In this document: positions 5,021-49,447 of the stretch, in pieces
Position numbering within the stretch: the stretch's first letter is position 1
Layout of the letters: each line of letters starts with the position of its first letter
Assembly: GCA_965214865.1 (NCBI GenBank)
Contig: CBDCCN010000001.1
Location: 451,747 to 515,746 of the forward strand
Origin: Vicinamibacterales bacterium
GTDB lineage: Bacteria > Acidobacteriota > Vicinamibacteria > Vicinamibacterales > UBA8438
Direction of reading: 5' to 3'
Length of the DNA: 64,000 nucleotides
Translations under genes and position numbers: made by a program
The notes under the pieces: generated by a model
Told to the model about the DNA's origin: nothing
The model's database searches: none
The model's input: only the letters and a program-made list of their open reading frames with translations

Positions 5021-7063
5021 TCATGACGGCAGCCGGAACGCCACCAGCGAGGGCGACTCGCCGCCGACGGTGAGTGCGATGTACTGCCGGCCGTCCAGCA
5101 GGTAGGTCATCGGCGTCCCGATGGCCCCGCCCGGCAGATCTATCGCGGCCAGGGCCTCGCCGGACGCCTTGTCGTAGGCGACGAGCTGCGGCCCGTCGTC
5201 CGCACCGCCGGCGGTCAGCGCCTGCACGAGCAGGGTCTTCGTCAGCAGCGGGCCGTTCCGGCCGCTGTCTCCGCCCAGCGGGGGCAGATCGAGGTGGCGC
5301 AGCAGCGGGTGGTTGCGGATGCGGTCGCCGTCGCCGAGGGGCGTCATCCAGAGGTGCTCCCCCGTGTTCATGTCGATGGCGGTCATCCGCGAGTACGGCG
5401 GCTTCCAGAGCGGCAGGCCCTGCGGCATGACCGGCGTCCGCCGCGGATTGCCGCCGTCGAGGAACGGCGCCCCGCCGCGGCTCAGGACGTACCGCAGGGT
5501 CGAATCCTCGCCCGGGGCCGGCTCGCGGAACCGCATCACCGAGTGGGCGTTCCGTGACGGGACATAGAGGACGCCGGTCTCCGGATCGACGGCCGCCCCG
5601 CCCCAGCTCGCCCCGCCGCCGGCGCTCGGGCGGAAGATCGTGCCGTCGAGGGACAGGGGCGTGTACAGCGGACCGAGGCGGAAACCCTCCACCGCCTCCA
5701 CCGCCATCCGGCGGACCTCCGGCGTGAAGTCGATGAGGTCGTCGAGGGTCGCGCCCTGGTATTCGAACGGGGCCGGCCGCGTCGGAAACGGCTGCGTCGG
5801 CGACAGCACCTCTCCTTCCAGGTCCGTGTCGGTCGCCACCGGCCGCTCTTCGATCGGCCAGATAGGCTCGCCGGTCACCCGGTCGAAGGCATAGACGAAG
5901 CCCTGCTTCGTCACCTGCGCCAGCGCCTTCACCCGGCGCCCGTCGACGGTGACGTCCAGCAGGTTGGGACCGGTCGGGTTGTCGTAGTCCCAGACGCCGT
6001 GGCGCACCATCTGGAAGTGCCAGACCCGCTGCCCGGTCTCCAGGTCGACGCAGACGAGGCTCTCCGCGAACAGGTTGTCGCCGATCCGGTGCCCGCCGTA
6101 GTAGTCCGAGGTCGGCGTGCTGGTCGGCAGGTAGACGTAGCCGAGCTCGGGGTCCGCCGCGATGCTGCCCCAGACGTTGGTGTTGCCGGAGTAGCGCCAC
6201 GCTTCGTCCAGCCACGTGTCGGAGCCGAACTCGTCGGCGCTCTGCGGCACGGTGTGGAAGTCCCACTTGTGCCGGCCGGTGCGGGCGTCGTAGGCGCGGG
6301 CGAACCCCGGCGCGTTCTCCCTCCCGAGCAGGTAGTCGTGCACCGACGAGCCGACGATGATCGTGTCGCCCACCACCAGCGGCGGCGAACGGGACGGCGG
6401 CGGCAGCCGGCTGGGGTTCTCGCGCGCCCGCGGGATGCCCTCCTCCAGGCTCACGCGCCCGTTGTCGCCGAAGTCCGTGGCCGGCAGACCCGTCCGCGCG
6501 TCGACCGCCGTCAGGTAGCCGTCGCCGGTGCCCCAGATGATGCGCGCCTCGTCGCCGTCCTCCCACCAGGCCACCCCGCGGTGGTTCCAGGGAGACGGCA
6601 GCGGCGGGCTGCCGGCCTCGTAGACGCGCGGGTTGTGGATCCAGAGCGTCTCCCCGGTGCGTGCGTCGACCGCCGCCGCCTGGTACAGCGGCGTCGCCAA
6701 GTACAGCACGCCGTCCACCATGAGCGGTGTCGCCGACAGGCGTGCGATGCCCGGCCGGGTCACCCAGAGATCCGGATTCGCCGCCTCGAGGCGCTCGAAG
6801 ACCGTCTCGGCCGCGACGAGGGAAACGCCGCTCTCGTCCTCGACCGGCAGATGCGTGTCGGCGGTGCGCCAGCGCCACGCCAGCTCCAGATCCGCGAAGT
6901 TGTCGCCGTCGATCTGGTCGAGCGGCGCGTACTTCGTGCCCCAGGCGTCGGCGGCATAGGTGCGCCACTCGCCCCCGGCGGCGCCCTGCTGTGCCCCGGC
7001 GGGCGCGGCCGCCAGCCACGCGACCAGCAGCGCGCCCCCCAGGATCCCTGTACTCCGGCTCAT
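5021..7063 (-). CDS. PQQ-dependent dehydrogenase, glucose/quinate-dehydrogenase-like, periplasmic
   Basis: Start at ATG 7063 within track ORF 5021..7573. Signal MSRSTGILGGALLVAWLAAAPAGAQQ. 680 aa with PQQ-propeller blocks (ATPLMVDGVLYLATP, DARTGETLW, NVWGSIAADPELGYVYLPT, HGVWDYDNP, GGASWGGAAVDPETGVLYV). Confidence 0.85.
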   Translation of the reverse strand: MSRSTGILGGALLVAWLAAAPAGAQQGAAGGEWRTYAADAWGTKYAPLDQIDGDNFADLELAWRWRTADTHLPVEDESGVSLVAAETVFERLEAANPDLWVTRPGIARLSATPLMVDGVLYLATPLYQAAAVDARTGETLWIHNPRVYEAGSPPLPSPWNHRGVAWWEDGDEARIIWGTGDGYLTAVDARTGLPATDFGDNGRVSLEEGIPRARENPSRLPPPSRSPPLVVGDTIIVGSSVHDYLLGRENAPGFARAYDARTGRHKWDFHTVPQSADEFGSDTWLDEAWRYSGNTNVWGSIAADPELGYVYLPTSTPTSDYYGGHRIGDNLFAESLVCVDLETGQRVWHFQMVRHGVWDYDNPTGPNLLDVTVDGRRVKALAQVTKQGFVYAFDRVTGEPIWPIEERPVATDTDLEGEVLSPTQPFPTRPAPFEYQGATLDDLIDFTPEVRRMAVEAVEGFRLGPLYTPLSLDGTIFRPSAGGGASWGGAAVDPETGVLYVPSRNAHSVMRFREPAPGEDSTLRYVLSRGGAPFLDGGNPRRTPVMPQGLPLWKPPYSRMTAIDMNTGEHLWMTPLGDGDRIRNHPLLRHLDLPPLGGDSGRNGPLLTKTLLVQALTAGGADDGPQLVAYDKASGEALAAIDLPGGAIGTPMTYLLDGRQYIALTVGGESPSLVAFRLPS

Positions 7064-7128
7064 CGGACGCGCGCTCCTGTCGATGTCGCTCTCCCGCGGA
7101 ACGGTGCACACCCCCGCGCCGACGCGGG

Positions 7129-7935
7129 CTACTTGAGATCGGCGAACGACACGTCGCGCGCCCGGAACGCCGCGGTCAGCAGGCGGCCCGCGTTCACCGC
7201 GGCCGGCCAGCCAGCGTAGAAGGTGACGTGCAGGACCACTTCGGACAGCTCCTGCGGGGTGACGCCGTTCTGGTCGAGAGCGCGGTCGATGTGCAGCCGC
7301 AGTTCGTTGGTGACGTACAGGGCCTGATTCACCGCCACCGTGACGAGGCTGCGGTCGCGCTTCGACAGCAGCGGCCGTTCCCAGATGTCGCCATAGAGCA
7401 GGCTGTTGCGCAGCGCGCCGAGCCGCGGCGCCGCCGCGTACGCGTCGCTCAGCCCGCCGGGCGTCGTGATCGCCTCCGGCAGATCCGGCGCGCGCGGCAG
7501 GTCGCCCAGCGTCAGCCCCCGCGCCTCGAACGCCTCGGCCGCCGTCAGCGACGCCTGCACCCCGGTCGGCCACCCCGCGTAGAAGGTGACGTGCAGGATG
7601 ATCTCGGAGATCTCCTCCGGCGTCAGTCCGTTGTCGAGGCCGCGCGGGACGTGAATCGCAAGCTCCTCCCGCGCCAGGGCCTGGAGGGCCGCGATCGTGA
7701 TCAGGCTCCGGTCCCGTTTCGACAGGTAGGGACGCTCCCAGATCTCGCCGTAGACCAGCGAGTTCCGGAGTTCACGCAGATACGGGGAGCCGGCGTACAG
7801 ATCGGGCGCCGGGAGGGCCGGCGCAGCGGTCTGCTGCGCCGCCGCGGGCGCGGCGCCGACCGTCGGGTGTCCCAGGACGCCGGCGAACGCCACGGCGGCG
7901 GCGGCCAGGAGGTTGGCTGGACGTGATTTCTTCAT
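7129..7935 (-). CDS. exported tandem carboxymuconolactone-decarboxylase (AhpD-like) family protein
   Basis: Start at ATG 7935 (GGGGAG upstream) inside the artificial 919-aa track ORF. Signal MKKSRPANLLAAAAVAFAG. Two repeats of the CMD pattern (WERP.LSKRDRSL(I/V)T(I/V)A, HVTFYAGWP). Confidence 0.8.
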   Translation of the reverse strand: MKKSRPANLLAAAAVAFAGVLGHPTVGAAPAAAQQTAAPALPAPDLYAGSPYLRELRNSLVYGEIWERPYLSKRDRSLITIAALQALAREELAIHVPRGLDNGLTPEEISEIILHVTFYAGWPTGVQASLTAAEAFEARGLTLGDLPRAPDLPEAITTPGGLSDAYAAAPRLGALRNSLLYGDIWERPLLSKRDRSLVTVAVNQALYVTNELRLHIDRALDQNGVTPQELSEVVLHVTFYAGWPAAVNAGRLLTAAFRARDVSFADLK

Positions 7936-8492
7936 GATCGATGCTCCCCGGCGATCCGGAAACCTCGGTTTCGGCATCCTGCCGGCCCCGTCCGTTCGAC
8001 CCTTTCCGCGGGCGACCCACGGCGGCTGCATTTCCTGTCGTGCGGCGCGCGGCCGGTGAAGGACGACTACCCACCGCCACGCGCCCACGTTCTCCGCGAC
8101 AAGCTTGTCGGCTTGCGTGATCCCGTCATCGAAGAGCGTACTGTATTCCATGAGCCGCGGCATCCAGCGAGCCACACCACGGCGTCTCGTGTTGCACACC
8201 GGCGGGCATGGCGATGGGATCACCAGTCGCGGCACGCGGCCGGACACGGTGTTCGGCATCGCGATCGCTCCGGACCGCATCACTGTCGACGAGTGACCGG
8301 ACCGCCAGTCCGATCGCCTCCTCCATCCGTTCAGTGTAAACGGGTTGCGATGCGCCCGACTGCGCCGCCGGCCGGGCTGCCAGGTGACGAGCTTGTCGGT
8401 TCGGCGGTATGCCTTCGTTCGTCGTATCCTTCGCATCGCGTTCAACAAGGTAACCCGCTTCTCGGTGGCGTTCGGTGGCAAGCTGGTGACGG

Positions 8493-9776
8493 TCAGGATT
8501 CGGGCATCCGGAGCCGGCGGCAACGCGCCGCCGCCGAACCGCCGGGGAAACGGCCGGAGCGGCGGACTCGGCGCGCGGCGAGGTCTACCGCCGGACCGAT
8601 CGGGGCTGGCGGCGGCGCCCGGTCGGCAAGCCCCATCAGCCGCTCGACGACGACCCGCTGCACGGATCGCCGCACCGCCCGCTCGTAGGCCGTATCGGCC
8701 CGGGCCTCGAATCCGGCGTCGATCAGCGCGTCGAGCACCTCGCCCAGGCCGGGCAGCGTCTCGTCGAGCATGGCCTGCTCCACCAGCCGCGCCGCGCGGG
8801 CGGGGGTCAGAATCTGCGAGACGGTCAGGTCCGCCGCGACGATGGCCGGCGTCAGCGCGTCGAAGACCGGACCGGTGCGGCGCGGAAACAGCTCCCGGTG
8901 CAGGCCGTGACCCGGCGGCCGGGGCGGGATCTGCTGCAGCACGCTCTCCGGCAGCGTCAGCTCCGCCGGGTCGAGCGTGCGCAGCAGCGCGGCCAGCGCC
9001 GCGCGTTGCCGATCGCCCGCAACCGGAGTCAGCGGCACCCGGCCGTCGCTCCGCAGCGCGTAGACGTAGTCCACGCCGCCGAGGGCGGACGCCGCCGCGT
9101 CGATCTGATAGCGATGGTGCAGGTAGAGCGGCACCAGCGCCTCTTCCAGCGTCGCCAGGGGCCGGCCGGCGGGAATCGCGCTCTCGCCGAAGCGGTCGAG
9201 GGCGACGCGGCGCACCTGCAGCATGCGCTCCAGTTCGCGGGCCGGATCGGTCCCGTTGGCCCACTGGTGGACCCGCGGGTGGACGGCGGTGTCCTGGTTG
9301 GTCAGGTAGCGCAGGTCTTCCTCCCACGCCTCGTCCAGCAGCCGGCGCAGCGCCGACGCCGCGTCGGCGTCCGCCGGATGGTCCCGATAGCCGTACGCGA
9401 TCGCCACCTTGTCCCACGCGCCGATGCCGACGTCGTAGGCGTCGGAGAGGTCGATCTGCGCGTCGGGCCCCAGCGTCACCAGCGGATGCGGATAGTCCAT
9501 GACCGAGATCCGCCCCCGGCTGCTCGCGTAGTAGTTGTGGCCGAGCCCCAGCGTGTGCCCGACCTCGTGGGCCGACAACTGGCGGATCCGGGCCAGGGCC
9601 AGCTCGGCCAGCGCCGGCGGCTCCTCGTCGCCGCGCAGATAGGGCGAGAGCAGCCCTTCGGCGATCAGGTAGTCCTGCCGGACGCGCAGCGACCCGAGGG
9701 TGACGTGTCCCTTGATGATCTCGCCGGTGCGTTCGGTCCGTCCTCTCGTCAGCCTCTGCAAGCGCGGCGCCGTCAA
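8493..9776 (-). pseudogene. zinc metalloprotease (DUF5117/DUF4953-type), N-terminal ~350-400 aa missing
   Basis: HEVGHTLGLGHN lies only ~70 aa from the ORF start, whereas I recall it mid-protein in ~800-aa family members. The fragment begins at ...TGEIIKGHVTLGSLRVRQDY. A short further family-like piece (APDGIDIRD) lies upstream in another frame (to ~9880). No signal peptide or plausible start. Confidence 0.6.
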
Positions 9777-9910
9777 TCCCGAATGTCGATGCCGTCCGGG
9801 GCGACAGCGAGTCCCGAAGGCACGTTCGGTCTGCGTCCCCTGCTTGCAATGCCTTGGCGTGACCCGGCGTGACGACGCGCAGCAACAAGCTTGGGGAACG
9901 GCGTCGCGGA

Positions 9911-9976
9911 CTACTCGAGATCGGAGAACGACACGTCCCGGGCCCGGAAAGCGCGGTCAGCAGACGCCCCGCGTTC
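9911..9976 (-). repeat. relic of a CMD-family gene 3' end (...AFRARDVSFSDLE*), ~85% identical to 7129..7195
   Basis: ctactcgagatcggagaacgacacgtcccgggcccggaaagcgcggtcagcagacgccccgcgttc aligns with ctacttgagatcggcgaacgacacgtcgcgcgcccggaacgccgcggtcagcaggcggcccgcgttc, with a few mismatches and one 1-nt gap. No gene body precedes it. Confidence 0.75.
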
Positions 9977-10044
9977 GCGCGACGGGGACGTCCAGCGGGC
10001 CTCCAATCGGGGACCCGAAGTGGGAACCTGCGTGCGTCGAACCG

Positions 10045-10980
10045 TCAGTCGCGGAACGGCTCGGATTCGTGGACTACCACCCGGAAGCGCCGGAAGCGGC
10101 TGTAGGTGGCGGTGCCGTCGACGCGCGAGCGGCTCCGGCGATTGCTGTACCGCTCCCGCATCTCGACCGGCACGAGGTGGTCCAGCGCTTCGGGCTGCTC
10201 GTAGCGCACGGTGACCAGCGACTCGACGTCGTCGTCCTCGATAGCGAGCTCGGTGACCAGCACGCGGCCCGCGGCCGGCTCGATCCAGTAGCGGCCCCGC
10301 GCCGGCAGATTGCCGCCCCGACGGCGGCGGATGACGGTGGTCGGCCACGTTTCCCGGAACGCGACCACCCAGACGTCGCGGTCCGGCCCGTCGATGCCCA
10401 GGCTCGGCGATCGGTCCCGCACGCGCTCGAACTCGAACCGCGGCTTGTACGACTGACGCAGGAAGAGCAGGGCCAGGGTCGGCGTGTTCGTGTTGCGCTG
10501 GACGTCGCCGACGTTGTAGCGCGCGCTGTCGGTCAGGATGCCCTGTACCTGCCGGTCCAGCGTGGCCGCGCCTTCGAGAAAGAGCTGGGTCAACCGCTCT
10601 TCGCGGTCACGCACCCGGCTGCCGTTGGCCTCGAAGACGTCCCGGAAGCCGAAGTACCGCTCCGAGCCTTCCGGCCGCACGAGCAGGTAGTCGGACCGTA
10701 GCGTGACCCGCTCGTAGGAGTCGGTCCCGAACCGCCCGAACCCCGCCTGCGACGAGGCTCGCTGCTGGTAGCGCTCCTCCATCACGACGCCGGAAAGCTG
10801 CGCATGGAGCGCTTCGACGTACCCGGTGGCGCGGGCCAGCACGGTCGGCAGCGACGGTTCCTGCGCGCGGCTCGCCGGCGGCGACGCGACCCCCTGCGCC
10901 AGCCCGGCGCTGATCGCCAGCGCCGCGAGCCAGCGGATCCGCAGGCCGGCGACTGCGCGTCCGACATCTCGTCCCTGCAT
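10045..10980 (-). CDS. exported conserved hypothetical protein
   Basis: Track ORF 10045..10989. ATG 10980 is preceded by GGGAGG. The N-terminus is signal-like (LRIRWLAALAISAGLAQG). Non-shadow composition. No family recognised. Confidence 0.65.
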   Translation of the reverse strand: MQGRDVGRAVAGLRIRWLAALAISAGLAQGVASPPASRAQEPSLPTVLARATGYVEALHAQLSGVVMEERYQQRASSQAGFGRFGTDSYERVTLRSDYLLVRPEGSERYFGFRDVFEANGSRVRDREERLTQLFLEGAATLDRQVQGILTDSARYNVGDVQRNTNTPTLALLFLRQSYKPRFEFERVRDRSPSLGIDGPDRDVWVVAFRETWPTTVIRRRRGGNLPARGRYWIEPAAGRVLVTELAIEDDDVESLVTVRYEQPEALDHLVPVEMRERYSNRRSRSRVDGTATYSRFRRFRVVVHESEPFRD

Positions 10981-11060
10981 CGAGGCCACCTCCCTGCGAC
11001 TATACCGACGGCTGCGGCGTTCGGCCAGCGCGGACCGGTTGGCCGTATCGGCGAGTGCGG

Positions 11061-12866
11061 TCAGGCGGTCGGACGGGAGGCCGGCCGCGGCACGGCAGCG
11101 GCCCGCACCAGTTCCCAGCCGTGGAACACCAGCGCCAAGCCGGTGAACCGCGCCGTCCGGTACTCCCGGCGCAGCGTCTCGTCAGCCAGATACCGGGGCA
11201 GTTGCGCCGCCGCCTCTTCCGCCGCCGCATCCACCGCCCGCTCGTCCTGCTCGCCCCGCTTGACGTACTTGAGCTCGATCACGTAGCCGTGGCCCATGTC
11301 CGGAAAGCTGACCAGGTTCGGCGCCAGACAGATGTCGGCATAGCCCTTGCCGAGCTCCCGCTCGGAGTGGAACACGAAGTGCTCCGTGGCGCCCAGGTAG
11401 GCCGCCAGGAAGCCTTGCAGCACCTTCTCTCCGGCGATGTAGTCGCGGATGCCCGTCTGGCGGGCGATGGCCTCCGCCAGGTAGTCGAGCACCGGGCGCC
11501 ACGCGCCGCGGTAGGCCATCCCGTGGATGCGACGCTCCAGCGCGTAGAAGTCGGCGGCGAACGCGCCGACATCCTCGAACCCCTCGCGCAGGTGGCCGTA
11601 CAGCAGCCGCCTGACGGTCTGGTTGGGGATGCCCAGGCGCGGCATGCCCTCGACCGTCCCGCGGATGCTGAGCAGGCCGAAGTAGTGCAGCAGGGAGAGG
11701 AAGTGCTCGCGCTCGCTCAGCCGCTGCAGCGGAAAGCTGGCGCGGATGCGGCTGTCCGCCTGTTCCTCCGCGATCAAGTGGCGGAGCAGGTCGAAGTTGC
11801 CGTTCAGCTCGGCCTCGCCCTTCGGGACGTACTCCTGCGCGCTCGCCTGGCGGTCGACCAGCAGCAGGTGGCGCAGCTTGCCGTAGTCGATGCGGACGTT
11901 GTGGTCGATCAGGTCGCGGGGCGCGCCCCGGTTCGCAATCGACTCCCGCAGGTAGTGGAGCACCATGTCGGTGTTGTAGACGTCGCTCGTCACTCCTTCG
12001 GCGAAGCGGTAGCCGTCGTACCACTTGCGCATCACGTCCAGCGCGGCGTCGACGTCCTGGTCGAGGGCGCCGTGGTAGCGGTACGTCCGGAGGACGTCCC
12101 GCACCTCGCCCTCGGTGAAACCGAGCATCTCGTTGAACCCAGGCCGCAGACTGATGTTCGTGCCGATGTTGAAGCCGCTGGTGACGTCGTCCATGGTGAT
12201 CGGCGAGACGCCGGTGACGAACAGCCGCTCGACGGATCCGGTCTGGGTCGTGCCGGCCTTCAGGGTGCCGAAGAAGTTGCGGAAGAAGCCGCCGCCGTGG
12301 GTGAACGAATGGTACGCGTCGGCGCCCTGGTGGGCGAGGATGGTGTTGGCGAAGTTGTCGTACTCGTCGATCAGCACGTACAGCGGGATGTCGTGGTCGC
12401 CGACATACAGAAACAGCTCGTCGAGCTGGCCGGTGATCGACGGCCGCCCGAGGATGGCGCGCGCCGCCTCCCCGTCGAACAGGTCCCGATTGCGGCGCAG
12501 CGCGTACCGCAGATGGCTGGTGCAGTAGTCCTCGAAGTGCTCCTCCAACGTCGGCAACGCCTGCTTGAACGCCGAGAAGTCGAAGTACAGCACGACGTAG
12601 CGGCTCTGGTTGCCCGTCGGCTCCCGGCCGACGTCGGTGCCGGCAAAAACGGCCTCGAAGTCCTTGACCTGAGTGCGGTCGTAGTAGGCGTTCAGCATCG
12701 TCAGCCACAGCGACTTGCCGAACCGCCGCGGCCGGATGAAGAACACGAAGCGCTCCTGCTCCAACGTGCGGACGAAGCGCGTCTTGTCCACGTAGAGGCA
12801 GCCGTCGAGACGAATCCCGCGGAAGTTGCCTCGCCCGTAGGGAATCGGCGGGTACTGCGCCGGCAC
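11061..12866 (-). CDS. AAA-ATPase-like + PD-(D/E)XK nuclease family protein (PF09820/PF08011-type)
   Basis: 601 aa with a GTG start. N-terminal YVDKTRFVRTLEQERFVFFIRPRRFGKSL and C-terminal ELGKGYADICL...GYVIELKY are the hallmarks of this two-domain family as I recall it. Confidence 0.85.
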   Translation of the reverse strand: MPAQYPPIPYGRGNFRGIRLDGCLYVDKTRFVRTLEQERFVFFIRPRRFGKSLWLTMLNAYYDRTQVKDFEAVFAGTDVGREPTGNQSRYVVLYFDFSAFKQALPTLEEHFEDYCTSHLRYALRRNRDLFDGEAARAILGRPSITGQLDELFLYVGDHDIPLYVLIDEYDNFANTILAHQGADAYHSFTHGGGFFRNFFGTLKAGTTQTGSVERLFVTGVSPITMDDVTSGFNIGTNISLRPGFNEMLGFTEGEVRDVLRTYRYHGALDQDVDAALDVMRKWYDGYRFAEGVTSDVYNTDMVLHYLRESIANRGAPRDLIDHNVRIDYGKLRHLLLVDRQASAQEYVPKGEAELNGNFDLLRHLIAEEQADSRIRASFPLQRLSEREHFLSLLHYFGLLSIRGTVEGMPRLGIPNQTVRRLLYGHLREGFEDVGAFAADFYALERRIHGMAYRGAWRPVLDYLAEAIARQTGIRDYIAGEKVLQGFLAAYLGATEHFVFHSERELGKGYADICLAPNLVSFPDMGHGYVIELKYVKRGEQDERAVDAAAEEAAAQLPRYLADETLRREYRTARFTGLALVFHGWELVRAAAVPRPASRPTA

Positions 12867-13269
12867 ACAGCCAGTTTACCTCACCGGCCCTGCCGCGGCC
12901 TCACACCCTCACCCCCGGTCGCCGACCGCGGCCTCGACGAGGGACCGGGGCGTTCGACAGGTGAACCCAGCGTGGCCGCCTGTATCGACGGCCTCCGTGT
13001 ACGTACATCTCGACGAGGAGGACTCGGGGCGCTCGACGGGCGAACCGGCCCCGCCCTGGCCAAATGGGCAAAAGCGCCCGTCAACTTGGTAACATGGGCT
13101 GGTAACGCGATTCGATATTCGCCATGGTCTCGGCCATGGCGTGTCGGGACACGGAAGCCCGAACGGTTGCCGAAGGGGCTTCGCTGCCCGGGCGGCCGTC
13201 CTGGCGACGGCTGTATGAGCAGGCGCGAGGTCGTGCCGAGGCGGCGGAAGCGCGGTCGGAAGCACTGAA
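12867..13269. promoter_or_regulatory. divergent intergenic region between the PD-(D/E)XK gene and the giant helicase gene
   Basis: Assigned by position only (403 nt between divergent starts). A locally AT-richer core at 13081-13125 carries a direct repeat TGGTAAC at 13087 and 13100. No promoter consensus could be assigned with confidence. Confidence 0.3.
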
Positions 13270-16200
13270 GTGGGCGGAGGTGAAGCCGGACGGCGCGTGA
13301 GTAGCGGAGCGGCCGACGCCCCGCCGGACCCCGGCCGGGCCGCGTCGCAGGATGACGCCTCCTTCCGGCCGCCCTGCGTCTCCTTGGATCTCGAGGTCGG
13401 CAGGGACGACAGGATCCATGCCCTCGGGGCAGTGCGGGCTGATACCGGCCGCAGTCTGACGCATTCGGGCGGCGGTCTGGCCGACGCGCTGGAAAGGCTG
13501 GACGACTTCGCCGCGGGCGCGTCCTTCCTGCTGGGACACAACCTGATTGCCTTCGACCTGCCCCGCCTGGAGGCGGCGAAACCGGCCCTCCGGCTTCTGA
13601 AACTCCCGGCCGTCGACACGCTGCGTCTCAGCCCGCTCGCCTTCCCCCGCAACCCCTATCACAGTCTCGTCAAGCACTACCAGGACGGCGGTCTGAAGCG
13701 CGGCCGGGTGAACGATCCCGAGATCGACTCCCGCATTGCGCTGAAGCTCTACGGCGACGAGTGCGAGGCGCTGGCGAAGGCCGCACCGGACCTGCTCGCC
13801 GCATGGCACTGGCTGTGCACCCCCGAGCCCGGGGGCGTGGACCGCGCCCTGGACGGGCTCTTCTGCCGGCTTCGGAGGGCGGACCGGCCGTCGCGGACGG
13901 CGGCTGGGGCGGCGATCGGACAGCGGCTGGAGAACGCCGCCTGCGCGACCCGGGCACGCGATGTCGTTGCGCAAGCGGACCAACTCGGCTGGCCGCTGGC
14001 CTATGCCCTGGCATGGCTCTCCGTGGCGGGCGGCAACTCGGTGATGCCGCCCTGGGTGCGCCACCGGTTTCCGGAAGCGGGGCGACTGGTGCGCCGCCTC
14101 AGGGACGCCGCCTGCACCGATCCGGCCTGCGGCTGGTGCCGGGAGCGCCATGACGCGGTCAGGGAGCTGAAACGCTGGTTCGGTTATGACGGTTTTCGTC
14201 CCGAGCCGGCGGATGCCGACGGCAGACCCATGCAGCAGGCCATCGTCGAGGAGGCGATGGCGGGAAGACATGTTCTGGGCATCTTGCCCACCGGGACGGG
14301 GAAGTCGCTCTGCTACCAGATCCCCGCGCTGTCGCGCTACGACAAGACCGGTGCGCTGACGGTCGCGATATCGCCCCTGGTCGCCCTGATGGCGGACCAG
14401 GTGGCCGGCCTGGAGCAGCGCGGCATCGGCTGCTGCGTGACCGTCAACGGGCTGCTGTCGATGCCGGAGCGGGGCGGCGCCCTGGACCGGATCCGGCTGG
14501 GAGACGCCGGCATCCTGCTGATCTCGCCGGAGCAGTTGCGCTCGCGCTCCCTGCGGCGGGTTCTGGACCAGCGCGAGATCGGCGCCTGGGTGCTGGACGA
14601 GGCGCACTGCCTGTCGAGCTGGGGTCACGACTTCCGGCCCGACTACCGCTATGTGGGGCGTTTCATCCGCGAGAAAGCAGGTGAAGGACCGATACCTCCG
14701 GTCCTGTGCCTGACCGCGACCGCCAAACCCGATGTCGTCGGGGACATCGCCCGGCACTTTCGGAACGAACTCGGTATCGAACTGGCCGTGTTCGACGGCG
14801 GCGCGGAACGCGCCAATCTCGCCTTCGAGGTGATCCCGACCACGGGAGGAAAGAAGTTCTCGGACATCCTTCAGGCCCTGACGTTTCATCTGCCGCCCGA
14901 CGCGCAGGGCGGCGCGATCGTCTACTGCGCGACGCGGCAGCAGAGCGAGGACGTCGCGGAATACCTTCAGTCGAAGGGGGTCGCCGCGGACCGTTTCCAC
15001 GCGGGCCTGCCTCCGGAGACGAAGAAGGAGGTGCAGCGGCGCTTCATCGCCGGCGAGTTGCACGCGATCGCGGCCACCAACGCGTTCGGGATGGGGATCG
15101 ACAAGCCGGACGTGCGGCTGGTCGTCCACGCCGACATACCGGGCTCGCTCGAGAACTATCTCCAGGAGGCCGGCCGCGCAGGGCGCGACCGCGACCCGGC
15201 GCGCTGCGTTCTGCTCTATGCGGCGAACGACGTCGAGCGCCAGTTCGGCATGTCGGCGCGCTCGCGTCTCACCCGCGCGGAGATCCACGGGATCCTGAGA
15301 GCCCTGCGCAATCTCGACCGGAAGAAGCGCTTCGACGGCGACGTGGTGGCGACCGCCGGCGAGATCCTCGGGGAGGACGAGGAGAAGGTATTCGAACGCG
15401 ACTCCGCGACCGACGACACCCGGGTGCGCACCGCCGTCGCCTGGCTGGAGGAGTCGCAACTCCTCACCCGCGAGGAGAATGTCGTGCAGGTGTTCCCGTC
15501 CTCGCTCCGGGTGAGTACGGTCGACGAGGCCGAACGGCGGCTCGCCAACGCAAGGATCGCGGATGTGTATCGCAGGCAGCTTCTGCTGATCGCGGAAGCT
15601 CTGATCGGCGCGGGCGCCGACGAGGGGGTGAGCACGGACGAGCTGATGGGGATCTCGGGGCTGAGTCCGGAACGGGTGCGCGGCGCCCTGTACGACCTGG
15701 AGCGGTTCGGCATCGCCGACAACGACACGGCGCTGACCGCGTTCGTCCACACCGGCGTGCACCGCTCGTCGCGGAAACGCCTCGAAGAGGCGGTTGCCTT
15801 GGAGACCGCTCTCATCGCCCACATGCAGGAGGCCGCTCCCGACCTCGGAAAGGGAGACAGTTCGTCACTCCACCTGCGTATCGCCGCCCAGGTGCTGCGG
15901 GACCGGGGTCTGGCCGATCCGCTGCCGGAACTGCTGTTCCGGATCGTCCGGAGCATCGCCTTCGACGGAAGGGGCGAGGACCATGGCGCCGCGGGCAGCC
16001 TCACGGTCCGCAAGCGGGATGCGGAGACCGCGCGGATTACGCTGAACCGCGAATGGGTCGCACTGGAGAAGACCGCCGGCATGCGCCGCGAGGCGGCCGG
16101 CCGACTGCTCGAACATCTGCTCGACTGCCTGCCGCCCGGCAGCCGTGGCACCGATCTTCTGGCAGAGACCACGCTCGGAAAACTCCTGCAGGCGATCGAG

Positions 16201-18483
16201 TCCGACCTGGTGCTCAAGAGCAAGGTGAGGAACCCGGCCAAACTGCTGGACCGGGCCCTGCTCTGGCTCCACGAGCTGGAGGTGATCCGCCTCAACAAGG
16301 GGCTGGCGGTGTTCCGCCCGGCCATGACGATCCGGCTGGCGCAACGGGACCGCCGCGGCTTCTCCAGGGCGGACTTCGAGCCCCTTGCGCTTCACTACAG
16401 GGGACAGGTGCTGCAAATCCACGTCATGGTGGAGTTCGCCGAGCGCGGCCTCGCGGCCATGAGCGAGGCGCTGCGTCTGGCCATGGACTACTTCGCACTC
16501 ACGCAGGAGGGGTTTCTCGCCCGCTGGCTGCCTGGTCGGGACCGGGAGATCGGCCGGCAGACGACGCCCGCCTCCTGGCGCGCCATCGTCGAGAGCCTGG
16601 GGAACCCGGTCCAGCAGCGCATCGTGGCCGACGAGCGGGAACGGACCAACGTCCTGGTCCTCGCAGGGCCCGGTTCGGGCAAGACGCGCGTGCTGGTGCA
16701 CCGCATCGCCTGGCTGATCCGCGTCAGACGGGAGAACGCCCGGGGCATCCTCGCGCTGGCCTACAACCGTCACGCGGCCGTCGACATCCGTCGCCGGCTG
16801 ACGGAGATGATCGGCGACGACGCGCGCGGCGTGACGGTGCTCACCTGCCACGCGCTTGCCATGCGCCTGGCGGGCCAGAGCTTCACCGGCCGGTCGGAGC
16901 GCCCGGACGACGGGACGTTCAGGGACGTGATGCGCCGTGCCGTCGCGCTGCTCCGCGGTGAGGAGCTGTCGCCGGAGGAGGCGGACGAGCGCCGCGAGCG
17001 CCTGCTCGCGGGCTTCCGGTGGATTCTCGTCGACGAGTACCAGGATGTCGGTCCGGAACAGTACGAGCTGATATCGGCGCTGGCCGGACGGACAATGGAA
17101 GGCGACGCGGGCAAGCTCACACTGTTCGCCGTCGGCGACGACGACCAGAACATCTATGCCTTCAACGGAGCGTCGGTGGAGTTCATTCGGCGCTTCGAGG
17201 CCGACTACGGGCCGAAGCCCACCTACCTGACCGCCAACTACCGTTCGACGGCCCATATCGTGGAGGCGGCCAATGCGGTGATCGAGCCGGCGCTGAACCG
17301 CATGAAGGCGGGGCATCCCATCCATGTCGACCGCGCGCGAGAGAAGGACCCGCCGGGCGGAGCGTGGGCGGCGCTGGACCCGGTTTCGCGCGGGCGGGTG
17401 CAGATCCTGCCGGCCGGAGGCGACCCGGTCGGCCAGGCGCGGGCCGTCATGGCGGAGTTGCTGCGTCTCTCCGAGCTGGCGCCGGAATGGGACTGGTCGC
17501 GGTGCGCGGCCATCGCGCGCGAGTGGGAGTATCTGGTTCCGGTGCGGGCGTTCTGCGAGGCGCACAACCTCCCGGTACAGATGGCGAACGAGGACATCCC
17601 GAATTTCTGGCGCCTGCGGGAAACTCGGGCGTTCGTCGAATCGCTGCGCCGGCGCAAAACGCGAATTGTCGACGGCGCGTCCCTGCGCGGGTGGGCCGAC
17701 GCGGGGTCGTCTGATCCCTGGCACGATCTGCTGCGGCAGGCGGTGGAGGAACATGCGGTGGAAACCGGCGGCGGAGAAACGCCGGTGGACCACTTCATCG
17801 AGTGGCTGGCCGAGTGGGGCCGGGACATACGCCGCCGCCAGCGGGGGCTGCTGCTGCTCACCGCCCATCGCGCCAAGGGGCTGGAGTTCGATCATGCGGC
17901 GGTCCTGGACGGCGGCTGGGACCGCGTGGGCCGCGACGAGGATCCGGACGCGCCGCGCCGGCTGTACTACGTGGCGATGACGCGGGCGCGGCAGACGCTG
18001 ACGCTGGCGAGGCTCGACGGCTCCCGGAGCTTCCTTGCCGAACTGGCTGACCATCCCGCCACGATCCGCCGCGAGGCTGCCGAGCTTCCCCCGTGCCCGG
18101 AGGCGGTGGAGTATCGCCATGTCCGGCCCACCCTTCAGGAGGTCGATCTGGGGTTCGCCGGGCGCCGCCGCGCCGGCGATCCGATACACGGCGCCATCAC
18201 CGCACTGTCGATCGATGATCCCCTGGACGTGCGGGTCGGAAAGGACGGGCGTTGGACGTTGCTGGACCGGGCCGGCCGAACCGTGGGACGCCTCGCCGGG
18301 TCGTTCAGGCCGCCGTCCGGGTCACGGTGCCGGTCGGCGGCAACGTTCGCGGTCGTGGGCTGGAGCCGGGAGGCGTCGGACCCGAAATACCGCGACGCCA
18401 TGAGATGCGATGCCTGGGAGGTGGTCGTGCCCGAACTGGTGTTCGAGCGATGTCGACGGTCACCGAGATCTGCGTCAAAGTGA
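13270..18483 (+). CDS. 1,737-aa fusion: DEDD 3'-5' exonuclease - RecQ-type SF2 helicase - unknown ~450 aa - UvrD/PcrA-type SF1 helicase - C-terminal domain
   Basis: Single uninterrupted ORF; GTG 13270 or 13297 is the possible start. Exonuclease motifs: SLDLEV, GHNLIAFDLP, NDPEIDS. RecQ motifs: PTGTGKS, DEAH, HDFRPDY, QEAGRAGRD. UvrD motifs: AGPGSGKT, DEYQD, TAHRAKGLEF, YVAMTRAR. Confidence 0.9.
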   Translation: MGGGEAGRRVSSGAADAPPDPGRAASQDDASFRPPCVSLDLEVGRDDRIHALGAVRADTGRSLTHSGGGLADALERLDDFAAGASFLLGHNLIAFDLPRLEAAKPALRLLKLPAVDTLRLSPLAFPRNPYHSLVKHYQDGGLKRGRVNDPEIDSRIALKLYGDECEALAKAAPDLLAAWHWLCTPEPGGVDRALDGLFCRLRRADRPSRTAAGAAIGQRLENAACATRARDVVAQADQLGWPLAYALAWLSVAGGNSVMPPWVRHRFPEAGRLVRRLRDAACTDPACGWCRERHDAVRELKRWFGYDGFRPEPADADGRPMQQAIVEEAMAGRHVLGILPTGTGKSLCYQIPALSRYDKTGALTVAISPLVALMADQVAGLEQRGIGCCVTVNGLLSMPERGGALDRIRLGDAGILLISPEQLRSRSLRRVLDQREIGAWVLDEAHCLSSWGHDFRPDYRYVGRFIREKAGEGPIPPVLCLTATAKPDVVGDIARHFRNELGIELAVFDGGAERANLAFEVIPTTGGKKFSDILQALTFHLPPDAQGGAIVYCATRQQSEDVAEYLQSKGVAADRFHAGLPPETKKEVQRRFIAGELHAIAATNAFGMGIDKPDVRLVVHADIPGSLENYLQEAGRAGRDRDPARCVLLYAANDVERQFGMSARSRLTRAEIHGILRALRNLDRKKRFDGDVVATAGEILGEDEEKVFERDSATDDTRVRTAVAWLEESQLLTREENVVQVFPSSLRVSTVDEAERRLANARIADVYRRQLLLIAEALIGAGADEGVSTDELMGISGLSPERVRGALYDLERFGIADNDTALTAFVHTGVHRSSRKRLEEAVALETALIAHMQEAAPDLGKGDSSSLHLRIAAQVLRDRGLADPLPELLFRIVRSIAFDGRGEDHGAAGSLTVRKRDAETARITLNREWVALEKTAGMRREAAGRLLEHLLDCLPPGSRGTDLLAETTLGKLLQAIESDLVLKSKVRNPAKLLDRALLWLHELEVIRLNKGLAVFRPAMTIRLAQRDRRGFSRADFEPLALHYRGQVLQIHVMVEFAERGLAAMSEALRLAMDYFALTQEGFLARWLPGRDREIGRQTTPASWRAIVESLGNPVQQRIVADERERTNVLVLAGPGSGKTRVLVHRIAWLIRVRRENARGILALAYNRHAAVDIRRRLTEMIGDDARGVTVLTCHALAMRLAGQSFTGRSERPDDGTFRDVMRRAVALLRGEELSPEEADERRERLLAGFRWILVDEYQDVGPEQYELISALAGRTMEGDAGKLTLFAVGDDDQNIYAFNGASVEFIRRFEADYGPKPTYLTANYRSTAHIVEAANAVIEPALNRMKAGHPIHVDRAREKDPPGGAWAALDPVSRGRVQILPAGGDPVGQARAVMAELLRLSELAPEWDWSRCAAIAREWEYLVPVRAFCEAHNLPVQMANEDIPNFWRLRETRAFVESLRRRKTRIVDGASLRGWADAGSSDPWHDLLRQAVEEHAVETGGGETPVDHFIEWLAEWGRDIRRRQRGLLLLTAHRAKGLEFDHAAVLDGGWDRVGRDEDPDAPRRLYYVAMTRARQTLTLARLDGSRSFLAELADHPATIRREAAELPPCPEAVEYRHVRPTLQEVDLGFAGRRRAGDPIHGAITALSIDDPLDVRVGKDGRWTLLDRAGRTVGRLAGSFRPPSGSRCRSAATFAVVGWSREASDPKYRDAMRCDAWEVVVPELVFERCRRSPRSASK

Positions 18484-18557: not shown

Positions 18558-18621
18558 TGTGCAAACCGCGTCTGCGCGGTTTGCACACGCCTGTGGGCGC
18601 GGTTGTTTGCGTCCACAGGCG
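18558..18621 (+). terminator. two adjacent perfect GC-rich hairpins 75 nt after the helicase stop (terminator or structured RNA/operator)
   Basis: Hairpin 1 pairs 18558-18570 tgtgcaaaccgcg with 18575-18587 cgcggtttgcaca (13 bp, loop tctg). Hairpin 2 pairs 18588-18596 cgcctgtgg with 18613-18621 ccacaggcg (9 bp, 16-nt loop). No U-tract follows. Confidence 0.35.
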
Positions 18622-18866
18622 TGTCGGCGTCCACAGCCTCCGGGCTGGCGCGGCGAGCGGCGGTTCGTTCGGATAGCGTAGACAGCGGACGCAGACGTGG
18701 GGTGAGGGCCCGGGTACAGTCGGCTGCCTCGCCCGCGCCCGCCGCTCGGCGACACGACCGCCGAACGACGCCCTTGCTCTGCACCCGACAATCCTGTAGA
18801 ACGTGCATCCGTAACCCGCCGCGTTTCGTCGACAACCCAGCCGCGGCATCGGAGGAATCCAGAACG

Positions 18867-19730: not shown

Positions 19731-19760
19731 AACGGGAGGACGGCTATCCGTCTTCCCGTT
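19731..19760. terminator. hairpin between convergent aldolase and spondin-like genes (possible bidirectional terminator)
   Basis: aacgggaggacgg-ctat-ccgtcttcccgtt forms a 13-bp stem with one G-U pair. It starts 19 nt after the aldolase stop and overlaps the last codons of the minus-strand gene. Confidence 0.4.
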
Positions 19761-20541
19761 CCACCACCAGTCTTGTGAACGGTACGTCCCGCACGTCCGC
19801 GGGAAGCGCTTCGATGGGCCCGATCGGTTCGTGCGGGGTGACGTCGGCGTTCCGCGCGGTGAACGTCGTCCCGCTGTCCGTTCCCGCGTCGTAGCCCATC
19901 AGGTCCATCTCGATCCGCGGCGCCCAGCATGCTCCCTGACGCAGGTTGCTCCCGTCGACGCCGACGAACCAGTCCGGACTGGGCGCGATCATCGACACCA
20001 GGGTCAGGAACGGGAACGCCTCGTCGACGTCGAACGCGAGCGTGACCGTGCCGGGTGATGAAAAGGAGGCTTCCTCCCCGCGGATGCAGCCGCCCGCACG
20101 CCCGCGGTCGACCTCGGCCTGCACCTCGTCGCAGAACGCGGTGACGGCGCCGGTCTCCGCCATGCTCTCGATGCCGTCGGTGGCGATGCCGCCGCTGTTC
20201 CAGAACGAGACGTCCCCGCCGTGCGTGGTTCCGACCACGCGGGAGAAATGCGCGCCGGACGGAAACGGCGGCGAACTGCCGTGGGACGTCGCGTTCCACG
20301 TCGCCCTGAACGTCACGCCGTACGTCGCCGACCGGGAGCACTCCACCGTCGCTCCGGGAGTCATCTCGGTTCCGGACGGGGACAGCGGCGCACCATCACC
20401 TTCGGCGCAGCCGGCCCACCCGGCCGGACAGACCGCGACGATCAAGGCGAGCCACCGTCTCCTGCCCGTTCGATCCGCTCCGCCGGGGCGCCGGCCGGCG
20501 GATGACGGCCGCGCTCCGCTCGGCGTCGATTCCCGGCCCAC
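19744..20541 (-). CDS. Spondin_N domain lipoprotein
   Basis: Lipobox-like LIVAVCPAGWAGC. Blocks YGVTFRATW, HFSRVVGTTH and MIAPSPDWFVGV are characteristic of Spondin_N (PF06468) as recalled. Start uncertain. Confidence 0.7.
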   Translation of the reverse strand: MGRESTPSGARPSSAGRRPGGADRTGRRRWLALIVAVCPAGWAGCAEGDGAPLSPSGTEMTPGATVECSRSATYGVTFRATWNATSHGSSPPFPSGAHFSRVVGTTHGGDVSFWNSGGIATDGIESMAETGAVTAFCDEVQAEVDRGRAGGCIRGEEASFSSPGTVTLAFDVDEAFPFLTLVSMIAPSPDWFVGVDGSNLRQGACWAPRIEMDLMGYDAGTDSGTTFTARNADVTPHEPIGPIEALPADVRDVPFTRLVVEREDG

Positions 20542-24369: not shown

Positions 24370-25578
24370 TCAAGCATGCCGAACGTCGTCCGCCGAATCC
24401 GGACGCAGGTCGAACGTCACCCGGACGAAACGGTTGCGCTCGTCGCTGACGAGGGCCGGCTCGGTCCCGTTGAAGCGCGTCATGGCGTGGCGCATCGTCA
24501 GCCAGCCCCGCCCGCGGCGCTCCATCAATCCGCGGACGACCATGGCGTTCGCCATCATCTCGTTGCGCGAGCGCGGTGCGCCGCCCTGCCGCGCCTGCTC
24601 CACCGTCATGTGGTTCGGCAAGGCGCCCGGGCTCGTGACCACGACGCGGTCGTCGAACACCTCCAGCAGGATCTGGGATCCGACGATGGCGTAGTCCCGA
24701 TGGATGACCGCGTTGACCAGCGCCTCGCGCAGGACGTGCTCCGGCAGCGGTGGAACGTCCCGGCGATGGAGCCCCTGGTAAACCTCGCGTCTTCCCAGGC
24801 TCCGAAACCACCCCATCGCACGGCTCACCTGATCTTCCAGACGCCCCTTGCCCTCCCCGGCGCTCAACACGTCGGCCGCCTGATCGGCGCCGCCGTATGC
24901 GGCGCACTGCACGAACAGACTCAGCGTGTGCGGATAGGCCTGGGGATCGCGTCCGAACACCATCAACCCGTATAGCGTGGGACGGAGCACGCCGCCCAGC
25001 TCGTCGACGACGCCGGCGTTCCGCAGGTCGTCGTCGCGCGCCGGCTGCGGCGCCTCCTCGGTCTCGAGTCCCTGGGAACGCATGAAGGACCGGACGGCGC
25101 CGAAGTCGACGTCCTCGATGGAAGCGGACGGAACGACCTGCTTCTCGGTGAGGACGAACCCGAACGCGTTCAGCAGCTCCTGAAGCTCCGACGGCGACGG
25201 CGCCACCGTCGCCCGGCTGCATCGAATCCAGAATCGGCCGTCGGACACGAACGGCTCGTAGCCGCGCTGGTGGCGATGCACGTCGACCCAGTGCACCCAC
25301 CCGTTGCCGGTATCGCGGCGCCCGCACCGTGCGGTGATCGGCTTGCCGCAGCCGGTGTGCAGCAGGTTCGCCAGCCGTTCCTGCACGGCATCAGGACTCG
25401 CGCCGACGCCGACAACCGTTCCGTCGTCGTCGACGCCGAGCACCAGCAGCCCGCCGTCGCCGTTCGCGAAAGCGCACAGGGTCCGGGCGATGGCGCGCAA
25501 ATCTCCGCTGCTGCGTTTGAACTCCGTGCGGGCATCTTCCCCCGCACCGATTCGCCGCTGCACGTCAGGCCATTCCAT
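24370..25578 (-). CDS. AlbA_2 (Schlafen-like) + HATPase_c_4 putative DNA-binding/ATP-binding protein, paralog 1
   Basis: ATG 25578. 402 aa with TEFKRSSGDLRAIARTLCAFANGDGGLLVLGVDDDG (AlbA_2) and LREALVNAVIHRDY (HATPase_c_4-like). Confidence 0.8.
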   Translation of the reverse strand: MEWPDVQRRIGAGEDARTEFKRSSGDLRAIARTLCAFANGDGGLLVLGVDDDGTVVGVGASPDAVQERLANLLHTGCGKPITARCGRRDTGNGWVHWVDVHRHQRGYEPFVSDGRFWIRCSRATVAPSPSELQELLNAFGFVLTEKQVVPSASIEDVDFGAVRSFMRSQGLETEEAPQPARDDDLRNAGVVDELGGVLRPTLYGLMVFGRDPQAYPHTLSLFVQCAAYGGADQAADVLSAGEGKGRLEDQVSRAMGWFRSLGRREVYQGLHRRDVPPLPEHVLREALVNAVIHRDYAIVGSQILLEVFDDRVVVTSPGALPNHMTVEQARQGGAPRSRNEMMANAMVVRGLMERRGRGWLTMRHAMTRFNGTEPALVSDERNRFVRVTFDLRPDSADDVRHA

Positions 25579-25637
25579 CGTCCTCGCGGCCGAATCGTTT
25601 GCGCCAACTCGACGAAACCTCACCGCGCGGGTTCGCG

Positions 25638-48386: not shown

Positions 48387-48481
48387 GGTGCGGTCACCCT
48401 CGCCTGGACACGTTCCGCCTGGAACCCGAAGATAATCCCGTATAGGGTACATGACGAGCGGTCTTGTATCCGGGTGGGATC

Positions 48482-48921: not shown

Positions 48922-48979
48922 CTGTTGCGCGTCTTCGAGACGCTCTGGCTCTTCGCGCCGTGACGGCGCGCGGCCGAAT

Positions 48980-49300: not shown

Positions 49301-49447
49301 CTCGACGACGCTACGGCAATCCTCCCGTCGCTTGGCGTTCTCGATGCGGTCGAGGAAGGCCTCGACGAGCGCGTCCGCAACCAGCTCGTCGAACTCATCC
49401 AGCCGTGAGGCGCGAACCGCGGATGACTCCGACCATCCGCCTATCGC

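Follow-up and report, generated by a model that had tools for sequence, protein, structure and literature searches.

What does a single protein do that carries an exonuclease and two helicases, and does it need the gene beside it? The question is raised by one large open reading frame (ORF) in 64,000 nucleotides of a Vicinamibacterales bacterium (assembly GCA_965214865.1, contig CBDCCN010000001.1, forward-strand positions 451,747 to 515,746), a stretch we call the window. An earlier note saw this ORF and a divergent 601-aa gene as an acquired defence or repair module. That claim survives in part. There is an unnamed, mobile and plausibly defensive fusion, but the pairing with the 601-aa gene is not supported and no partner is conserved in 80 loci. 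We argue that the fusion would be a stand-alone accessory helicase-exonuclease that resects 3' strands, and that its role would be defence against mobile elements. This is a tentative reading to which we give slightly less than even weight. Defence is favoured because the gene is mobile, is carried on plasmids, is frequently inactivated, has defence-type surroundings and lacks SOS boxes.

Family-wide locus counts below refer to the best 80 loci in data with one genome per species, or to 81 loci when the window copy is included. L001 is the closest relative, a Vicinamibacterales copy, and L002 and L005 are Spirochaetia copies. The gene and its parts, all on the plus strand, are as follows.

13270..18483, plus strand: complete ORF of the exonuclease-RecQ-winged-helix-UvrD fusion, 1,737 aa from the GTG at 13270
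13270..13374, plus strand: N-terminal leader, aa 1-35, poorly conserved and shared at the DNA level only with L001 and L003
13375..13779, plus strand: DnaQ-fold 3'-5' exonuclease domain, aa 36-170, predicted from AlphaFold, Foldseek and conserved residues
13780..14199, plus strand: helical linker with a four-Cys (putative Zn) site, aa 171-310, from conservation and the model
14200..15249, plus strand: RecQ-family superfamily 2 (SF2) core, aa 311-660, with motifs I-VI intact
15250..16599, plus strand: family-specific middle region, aa 661-1110, from an AlphaFold model
16600..18024, plus strand: UvrD/PcrA/Rep-type superfamily 1A (SF1A) core, aa 1111-1585, with all motifs intact
18025..18447, plus strand: C-terminal domain, aa 1586-1726, ending W-E-V-x-x-P-E-L-V-F-E
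18448..18483, plus strand: 11-residue lineage-specific tail; most relatives end ...VFEPDR and the stop

In the database the protein begins 9 codons further on, at 13297, and has 1,728 aa. The window and L001 copies read through the usual end after a small indel. The five-part domain order, motif strings and residue numbers given in the earlier note are all correct when checked with Pfam, NCBIfam, the PDB, and AlphaFold with Foldseek.

The two helicase cores come first. Pfam places DEAD at aa 319-488 and Helicase_C at aa 544-640. The SF2 core belongs to the RecQ family at the subfamily level (recQ_fam, TIGR00614, 303.9 bits versus an NCBIfam cut-off of 219.8). The canonical RecQ equivalogs are not reached (TIGR01389 at 336.8 versus 640.2 bits, PRK11057 at 257.9 versus 1015 bits), and the equivalog alignment covers only model positions 5-336 of 591. 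The best PDB matches are bacterial RecQ proteins (4tmu at 5.8e-65, 1oyw at 9.5e-63), with alignments that stop at about residue 345-364 of RecQ, ahead of the Zn/RQC region. Of the 470 positions of TIGR00614 only 13-338 are matched, which bears out the earlier note in its view that the Zn/RQC/HRDC tail is absent. Neither Pfam nor NCBIfam finds RQC or HRDC in the fusion protein. In the second core Pfam finds UvrD-helicase/AAA_19 at aa 1115-1298 and UvrD_C at aa 1528-1580. It is an SF1A domain of the UvrD/PcrA type (PF00580 at 1.9e-38, PF13361 at 6.2e-11) as first described, and among solved structures E. coli UvrD resembles it most (9.7e-38). The UvrD, PcrA and Rep equivalogs of NCBIfam are missed by a wide distance (161.7-170.5 bits versus cut-offs of 911-1144 bits). 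Residue conservation was counted in 42 homologs that are 36-66% identical to the window protein. K345, D443/E444, K1138 and D1255/E1256 are invariant or nearly so; these are the Walker A lysine and the DE motif of each core. Other motif residues of the SF1A core are invariant too.

The exonuclease is less obvious. Pfam does not detect it in the window protein, and a few family members weakly match RNase_T (0.0055) and DNA_pol_B_exo1. When an N-terminal profile of 36 homologs is compared with the PDB the best match is the exonuclease of S. aureus DinG, at E=0.15, aligned from ExoII through ExoIII. The AlphaFold model (aa 26-330, made with 45 homologs of 38-89% identity) has a predicted local distance difference score (pLDDT) of 86.9, a predicted template modelling score (pTM) of 0.80 and the DnaQ-like beta-beta-beta-alpha-beta-alpha order. 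Its Foldseek hits with probability 1.00 are the Pol II exonuclease domain from E. coli (E=6e-4), S. aureus DinG (9ii8) and 8h2f, a DnaQ domain; T7 DNA polymerase (0.97) and TREX1 (0.84) match at lower probability. The acidic residues expected to bind metal are D40 and E42 (41 of 42 each) and D96 and D153 (42 of 42 each), and the shortfall is one gapped sequence. They lie in conserved stretches that comprise D40, E42, GHN..FD96, D116-T-L, PYH131..K135 and N148-D-P-x-x-D153. The motif P-Y-H131-x-L-x-K135 is itself near-invariant, with K135 in all 42 homologs and H131 in 41. Model and alignment together thus confirm the predicted DnaQ fold and all four metal-ligand carboxylates, and bear out the DEDD exonuclease that the earlier note had put at the N-terminus. 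In DEDD nucleases the general base is His in DEDDh (H-x4-D) and Tyr in DEDDy (Y-x3-D). Here this fifth position is taken by Asn, which aligns with the His of the ExoIII motif in DinG. Because the general base is replaced, nuclease activity is only predicted. Judged from the alignment, the site is an unusual DEDD variant.

The remaining parts are the linker, the middle region and the C-terminal domain. A cluster CTDPACGWC (aa 282-290) had been pointed out in the linker. Its cysteines are indeed conserved, but the real site has four of them, C225, C282, C287 and C290, each present in 42 of 42 homologs; H294 is not invariant. The middle region had been described as about 450 residues (aa 660-1110) of no known motif with one suspected winged helix. 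Profile and Foldseek checks against the PDB, Pfam and BFVD return no analogue, and the AlphaFold model (aa 640-1112) makes the suspected winged helix one of 3-4 such units. This model is locally good (pLDDT 83.9) with loose domain packing (pTM 0.57). It runs from a helical hairpin through 3-4 winged-helix-like units, each helix-helix-helix-strand-strand, to a 44-residue helix that leads into the UvrD core. Foldseek finds nothing at E<0.01 for it in the PDB or BFVD, only scattered weak winged helix-turn-helix proteins. Profile searches of the PDB and Pfam have no match for the middle or C-terminal regions, and for the latter they came back empty over aa 1586-1726, most of what the earlier note had marked as a ~155-aa C-terminal domain. 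The C-terminal domain is the least conserved part of the protein (mean column identity 44%), and the family alignment contains no conserved acidic or basic triad or other catalytic-type residues in it.

How old is this arrangement? A full-length search finds more than 120 clusters of 1,667-1,766 aa and 76-92% identity, and all named clusters are annotated 'RecQ family ATP-dependent DNA helicase'. The middle region was searched against 1.84 billion representatives with a cut-off of E<1e-30, and it matches 248 clusters at 50% identity. In the full-length matches it sits at about aa 630-1110 of proteins of 1,700-1,900 aa, down to 31% identity. Shorter matches appear to be fragments. Since the middle region keeps its position in the full-length matches, the architecture is ancient and fixed. 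The best 80 loci are all essentially full length and represent at least 12 phyla. They include Acidobacteriota, Spirochaetota, Binatia, Thermodesulfobacteriota, Latescibacterota, Chloroflexota, Gemmatimonadota, Nitrospinota, Actinomycetota, Cyanobacteriota, Poribacteria, and alpha-, beta- and gammaproteobacteria. Cupriavidus, Massilia, Telmatospirillum, Rhizobium, Rhodobacter and Allgaiera are among the cultured proteobacterial hosts. Many record names, such as Poribacteria, Poriferisocius and Poriferisodalis, we take to be pointers to sponge holobionts.

Two distant members should be mentioned. In Nostoc punctiforme pNPUN02 (6746-11764 of its locus) the annotation gives a member of ~30% identity as three ORFs in a row, called 'RecQ family helicase', 'UvrD-helicase domain protein' and '3'-5' exonuclease'. 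This copy is either split or decaying. It is next to an ISNCY transposase and a very large N-6 methylase and helicase pair. The Bacteroides finegoldii member (6893-11767) has 1,624 aa, is 30% identical over aa 39-1571 and has no C-terminal domain. Housekeeping-type genes are on one side of it, and on the other is a region with genes for a single-stranded DNA-binding protein (SSB), ParA and a helix-turn-helix protein. The family may behave differently in Bacteroidota.

Age does not mean vertical descent in every case. The closest relatives of the window protein are from Vicinamibacterales (94% amino-acid identity) and Spirochaetia (92%), which are in different phyla. At the DNA level the gene is 95.4% identical to L001, 94.2% to L002 and 92.3% to L005, and synonymous divergence (dS) is 0.096, 0.13 and 0.19, respectively. 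DNA homology to the relatives opens at 13284-13385 and closes at 18448, with ~250 bp of extra downstream homology in L001 only. Such low dS is incompatible with vertical descent across phyla, and together with homology that ends at the ORF limits it argues for recent cross-phylum transfer as a single gene. The earlier view that the gene was acquired is therefore upheld, and it is an accessory gene with a patchy distribution (cross-phylum dS 0.10-0.13, ORF-limited homology). In L005 the first ~310 codons (10001-10930, versus window 13357-14199) have a dS of 0.36-0.55 versus 0.11-0.14 elsewhere. They are 3-5 times more divergent synonymously, so this copy is a mosaic and the alleles recombine. 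The exchange between phyla apparently takes place within sponge-associated communities. Copies can also stay in a host for a long time, since gene GC follows the GC of the host flanks (r=0.79, range 0.46-0.71).

The ratio of nonsynonymous to synonymous divergence (dN/dS) is 0.17-0.35 overall, values that indicate purifying selection. In most of the closest comparisons the ratio peaks in the linker (aa 171-310), at 0.3-0.8, with 0.39-0.77 in the three closest (L001, L002, L005). Ratios in the fusion gene are looser than is usual in core repair genes. Disrupted copies make up 7 of 80 (~9%). Stops or frameshifts occur in L017, L036, L070, L076 and L039, and two copies have ~1.5-kb insertions with an opposite-strand ORF (L068 at 10306-11912, 507 aa; L079 at 11128-12590, 314 aa) that are probable insertion sequence (IS) elements. 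Many gene fragments are also found on megabase contigs. Full-length copies are on 22 plasmids, among them Thiothrix pTfr153, Cereibacter plasmids, Allochromatium vinosum pALVIN01 and rhizobial megaplasmids, and the carriers include large rhizobial and Rhodobacterales replicons. All of this supports a horizontally mobile accessory gene that is patchily distributed.

The next line of reasoning is the company the gene keeps. No conserved neighbour emerges when flanking ORFs are clustered all against all; the best cluster is present in 16 of 80 loci and is kilobases away. The immediate neighbours (±2) were surveyed with Pfam as the 120 nearest genes of 30 loci, and fall in 161 families, many of them metabolic. 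They include hits to type IV, type I and type IIG restriction, AbiEi/Eii and Hma. Farther out the flank genes give Hhe, HmaB, HEC-01A/B, DrmD-like and methyltransferase hits, and one distal ORF among L001-L035 matches the PADLOC models Hhe and PDC-S37 at E=0. Because distal ORFs match Hhe, PDC-S37, HmaB, HEC-01A/B and DrmD, several helicase loci lie inside multi-system defence regions. On plasmids, a type I restriction-modification system and an HNH gene adjoin the Allochromatium pALVIN01 copy, while Thiothrix pTfr153 has a type I-D CRISPR array 4 kb off and a WYL protein. Toxin genes nearby are RES and BrnT (Cereibacter), HipA (Rhizobium) and VapC/Phd with IS66 (Sulfitobacter). These counts are hidden Markov model (HMM) hits rather than called systems and have no genome-wide background. 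Read that way there are roughly at least 10 defence systems in ~600 kb, in communities that are themselves rich in defence. As an estimate this rough density near the helicase is above what is typical genome-wide.

How might such an enzyme work? RecQ and UvrD/PcrA/Rep helicases translocate 3' to 5' on single-stranded DNA (ssDNA), and DnaQ-fold nucleases take nucleotides off 3' ends. All three predicted activities would therefore converge on the 3'-ended strand. One can imagine that the protein loads where foreign DNA, be it phage, plasmid or conjugative ssDNA, exposes a 3' tail, nick or gap as it invades or replicates. One or both motors would unwind the duplex while tracking the 3'-ended strand, and the tethered exonuclease would degrade that strand. 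The result would be a one-chain machine for 3'-strand resection, comparable to WRN, ExoDinG, Hna or, within RecBCD, the RecB arm. A grip on the duplex and the coupling of the two motors may come from the winged-helix array together with the Zn module, and the variable linker and C-terminal domain may be sensing or regulatory surfaces. A single-chain design of this kind can be a complete defence system because Hna is one (PMC13381803). We would go further and suggest a new one-gene immune system, with a RecQ motor, a UvrD motor and a His-less DnaQ-fold exonuclease on a winged-helix scaffold, that would resect foreign DNA and be traded between phyla in dense communities such as sponge microbiomes. 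We hold this fuller proposal with somewhat less than even confidence.

Several observations weigh against a defensive role. Same-lineage pairs keep syntenic flanks at 78-92% identity, so inheritance is vertical within lineages, and the protein is conserved over its whole length, with at least 54% identity between proteobacteria and acidobacteria. These two properties would also suit a DNA-maintenance enzyme. Many loci, the window included, lie among ordinary metabolic genes. The frequency of defence-type genes within 10 kb of the helicase is a rough HMM-hit count, and a control set of distant genes at the same loci (the outermost flank genes of L001-L035, beyond the two nearest neighbours) is likewise rich in defence hits. 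PADLOC and NCBIfam match the fusion protein at the domain level only. Where a catalytic His or Tyr would be expected the exonuclease has Asn in 37 of 42 homologs and Pro, Gln or Ser in the rest, and never His or Tyr. To our knowledge there is no worked-out precedent for two motors of the same polarity in one chain, and our literature searches found no experiment on any family member.

The alternative that survives best is an accessory enzyme of DNA repair or recombination. The host would have acquired an all-in-one factor for its own 3' ends, gaps, stalled forks and bulky adducts that acts like WRN or the MrfA helicase and MrfB exonuclease pair, and it would be kept in DNA-damaging niches such as sponge tissue. 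Whole-length conservation and vertical inheritance at the level of lineages are the reason to favour it. Conservation is very high under apparent purifying selection (dN/dS ~0.2), and the gene persists vertically with conserved flanks in lineages of Latescibacterota, Accumulibacter, Chloroflexota and Pseudomonadales. Every module comes from a genome-maintenance family, many loci are set among metabolic genes, and MrfA/MrfB is reportedly a repair pair of a helicase with a DnaQ-like exonuclease (bioRxiv 10.1101/426304). However, core repair genes are not typically so patchy in distribution, recently transferred across phyla, carried on plasmids and disrupted in ~9% of copies. SOS/LexA boxes are not enriched upstream (0 in beta/gamma loci, 2 of 18 alphaproteobacterial loci), and restriction, abortive infection (Abi), toxin-antitoxin and CRISPR neighbours are frequent. 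We consider repair rather unlikely, though a serious competitor to defence.

Mobility could also mean that the protein serves the elements that carry it. In this scenario a helicase-nuclease of plasmids or prophages would aid their establishment, replication or competition, through anti-defence or the exclusion of rivals. The 22 plasmids fit this, as do the IS elements that flank several copies and the inter-phylum DNA homology that ends at ORF limits. A few copies are also on IMG/VR contigs beside Mu-like or terminase genes and DNA methylases. On the other hand, only ~5 true members were found in 2.9 million viral contigs, and most copies are chromosomal with no mobility genes nearby. No flanking motif or terminal repeat is common to the 70 non-redundant loci, and the sole inverted repeat that flanks the gene in the window is at chance level. 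It is improbable that the protein is primarily a factor of mobile elements. The extreme version, that the ORF itself is a selfish unit driving its own ORF-precise transfer, we rate as having at most a very slight chance because there are no terminal repeats or conserved flanks.

The least probable scenario is a two-gene surveillance module with the PF09820/PF08011 protein and the triple fusion as sensor and effector: the genes are adjacent and divergent in the window and a truncated PF09820/PF08011 gene is likewise placed in L005, but the partner is missing from 79 of 81 loci, the PF09820 copies are 31% identical versus 92% for the helicases, the closest relative L001 has unrelated upstream genes, and the 601-aa protein matches no PADLOC or NCBIfam model. 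The module as a candidate was rejected on its absence from those 79 loci. The features on either side of the fusion gene are these.

11061..12866, minus strand: PF09820 AAA-ATPase-like and PF08011 PD-(D/E)XK gene, 601 aa (Pfam aa 9-229 and aa 479-588)
12867..13269, no strand: divergent intergenic region, 403 nt between the 601-aa ORF and the fusion ORF
18558..18624, no strand: two adjacent hairpins 3' of the fusion stop, with a perfect 13-nt stem and a 16-nt stem at 94%

Both ORFs, their coordinates and the spacing of 403 nt are as originally called, and Pfam agrees that the smaller protein is AAA-ATPase-like with a PD-(D/E)XK domain. It is the divergently paired module that lacks support. A PF09820/PF08011 gene is beside the helicase in 2 of 81 loci, the window and L005, and tblastn of the window neighbours against the 80 homologous loci finds the partner in one locus only. 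The L005 copy is Pfam-confirmed, truncated and in the same upstream divergent position. The corresponding position in L002 has a DDE transposase. With copies so much less alike than the helicases, the PF09820 genes were not transferred with them. The pairing of the helicase with the 601-aa gene is incidental.

Composition does not set the locus apart either. Third codon positions had looked less GC-biased here than in the flanks, but GC at third positions is 0.86 in the helicase gene and 0.94 in the 601-aa gene, within the 0.80-0.96 of the other window ORFs. The window has a G+C of ~70% with a local dip at the locus of only ~0.71 to 0.68-0.70. No sigma-70-like promoter matches in 12867..13269, which has no homology to other loci before ~13284, and promoter and terminator scans of both intergenic regions around the fusion gene were uninformative. 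The hairpins at 18558..18624 may act as a terminator, or they may belong to a small palindromic element that was inserted here. Their ~70-bp segment is single-copy in the window, and L001 lacks it although its downstream DNA is otherwise homologous. An inverted repeat of 29 nt and 76% complementarity (12906-12934 / 18680-18708) brackets the helicase gene, and its right arm ends where L001 homology stops. It is at chance level for DNA of 70% GC and has no equivalent in other loci.

The other neighbours in the window are PQQ (pyrroloquinoline quinone) dehydrogenases, a Met-zincin, an HpcH aldolase and a Spondin_N protein. The last is a 265-aa ORF (19744-20541, minus strand; PF06468, 9.1e-41). 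Spondin_N is mostly a domain of eukaryotic extracellular matrix, and the ORF may fit a host-associated, possibly sponge, lifestyle. About 6 kb downstream of the helicase an 860-aa ORF (24370-26952, minus strand) joins Schlafen AlbA_2 (PF04326) to HATPase_c_4 (PF13749), an architecture often met in variable or defence-rich regions. Farther off, GC is lowered to 0.65-0.68 over 48000-56000 and GC skew is strongly negative at 49-51 kb. Genes there encode a ParA/AAA_31 ATPase (51120-52166), a DUF6036 nucleotidyltransferase (49448-50062) and DUF1801, so this patch may be a small island or a plasmid-derived insert.

Is the fusion then a known system under another name? Our literature searches found no description of an exonuclease-RecQ-UvrD architecture, and no solved structure in the PDB covers all of it. 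The earlier statement that no named system matches at full length thus remains correct. The top PADLOC matches over the RecQ core are DpdF (6.1e-112) and PsyrT (7.1e-87), but they cover only aa ~293-683. DpdF is the RecQ-like helicase of the Dpd 7-deazaguanine system and PsyrT is a RecQ-like toxin. The NCBIfam DpdF model gives 191.6 bits versus a cut-off of 550, which leaves the protein outside Dpd, and neither dpd genes nor a PsyrA-like antitoxin are found near the fusion gene. PADLOC models of Gabija GajB match up to 8.6e-47, on the SF1 core only. No GajA-like OLD nuclease is found as a neighbour at family loci, so the loci do not qualify as Gabija.

Single-motor enzymes resemble one part each. 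By sequence nothing matches the SF2 core better than bacterial RecQ (E. coli, Cronobacter, Deinococcus), but the fusion is three times longer and the alignment ends before the Zn-binding, winged-helix and HRDC parts. UvrD, PcrA and Rep share all SF1A motifs, whereas here that core is joined to RecQ and an exonuclease. RqlH was also compared and differs. WRN comes closer, with an N-terminal DnaQ-fold 3'-5' exonuclease followed by a RecQ core (core match E=1.6e-51). WRN has a DEDDy site, RQC and HRDC, whereas the fusion has Asn at the ExoIII residue. The fusion also has a four-Cys site on the N-terminal side of the core, and beyond the core it continues with a winged-helix array, then a complete UvrD-type helicase and a C-terminal domain. 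ExoDinG (DinG of S. aureus and B. subtilis) likewise combines an SF2 helicase and a 3'-5' ssDNA exonuclease in one polypeptide, and its exonuclease domain is both the best sequence match and a top fold match of the fusion N-terminus. Hna is a proven phage defence of one gene. Its single protein is both helicase and 3'-5' ssDNA exonuclease; ATP keeps it auto-inhibited and a phage SSB sets it off (PMC13381803). It has ~845 aa, a DinG-like SF2 helicase and a C-terminal PD-(D/E)XK nuclease, so the fusion differs from it in every module and is not an Hna (PMC13381803). The motors of DinG and Hna are XPD/DinG-like while that of the fusion is RecQ-like, and neither has a second SF1 motor.

What we have is a helicase-nuclease fusion whose scaffold domain is uncharacterised and whose exonuclease site is unusual. 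If active as predicted, it would be the first characterised enzyme to unite an SF2 RecQ motor, an SF1A UvrD motor and a proofreading-type exonuclease in a single polypeptide, and it would pose the mechanistic question of how motors that share one polarity work together. Members of the family are present in cultivable, tractable hosts (Allochromatium vinosum DSM 180, Cereibacter sphaeroides, C. azotoformans, Rhizobium, Cupriavidus, Massilia, Thiothrix), and the near-identical copies in Acidobacteriota and Spirochaetota are a clean marker of recent gene flow between phyla. In general design there is also a parallel with RecBCD, AddAB and AdnAB, which process DNA ends and restrict foreign linear DNA. 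They too have two helicase motors and nuclease activity in one machine. They are multi-subunit; their motors belong to SF1 and have opposite or single polarity, and their nucleases are PD-(D/E)XK enzymes of the RecB type, whereas the fusion has an SF2 and an SF1A motor, both 3' to 5' by family, and a DnaQ-fold nuclease in one chain.

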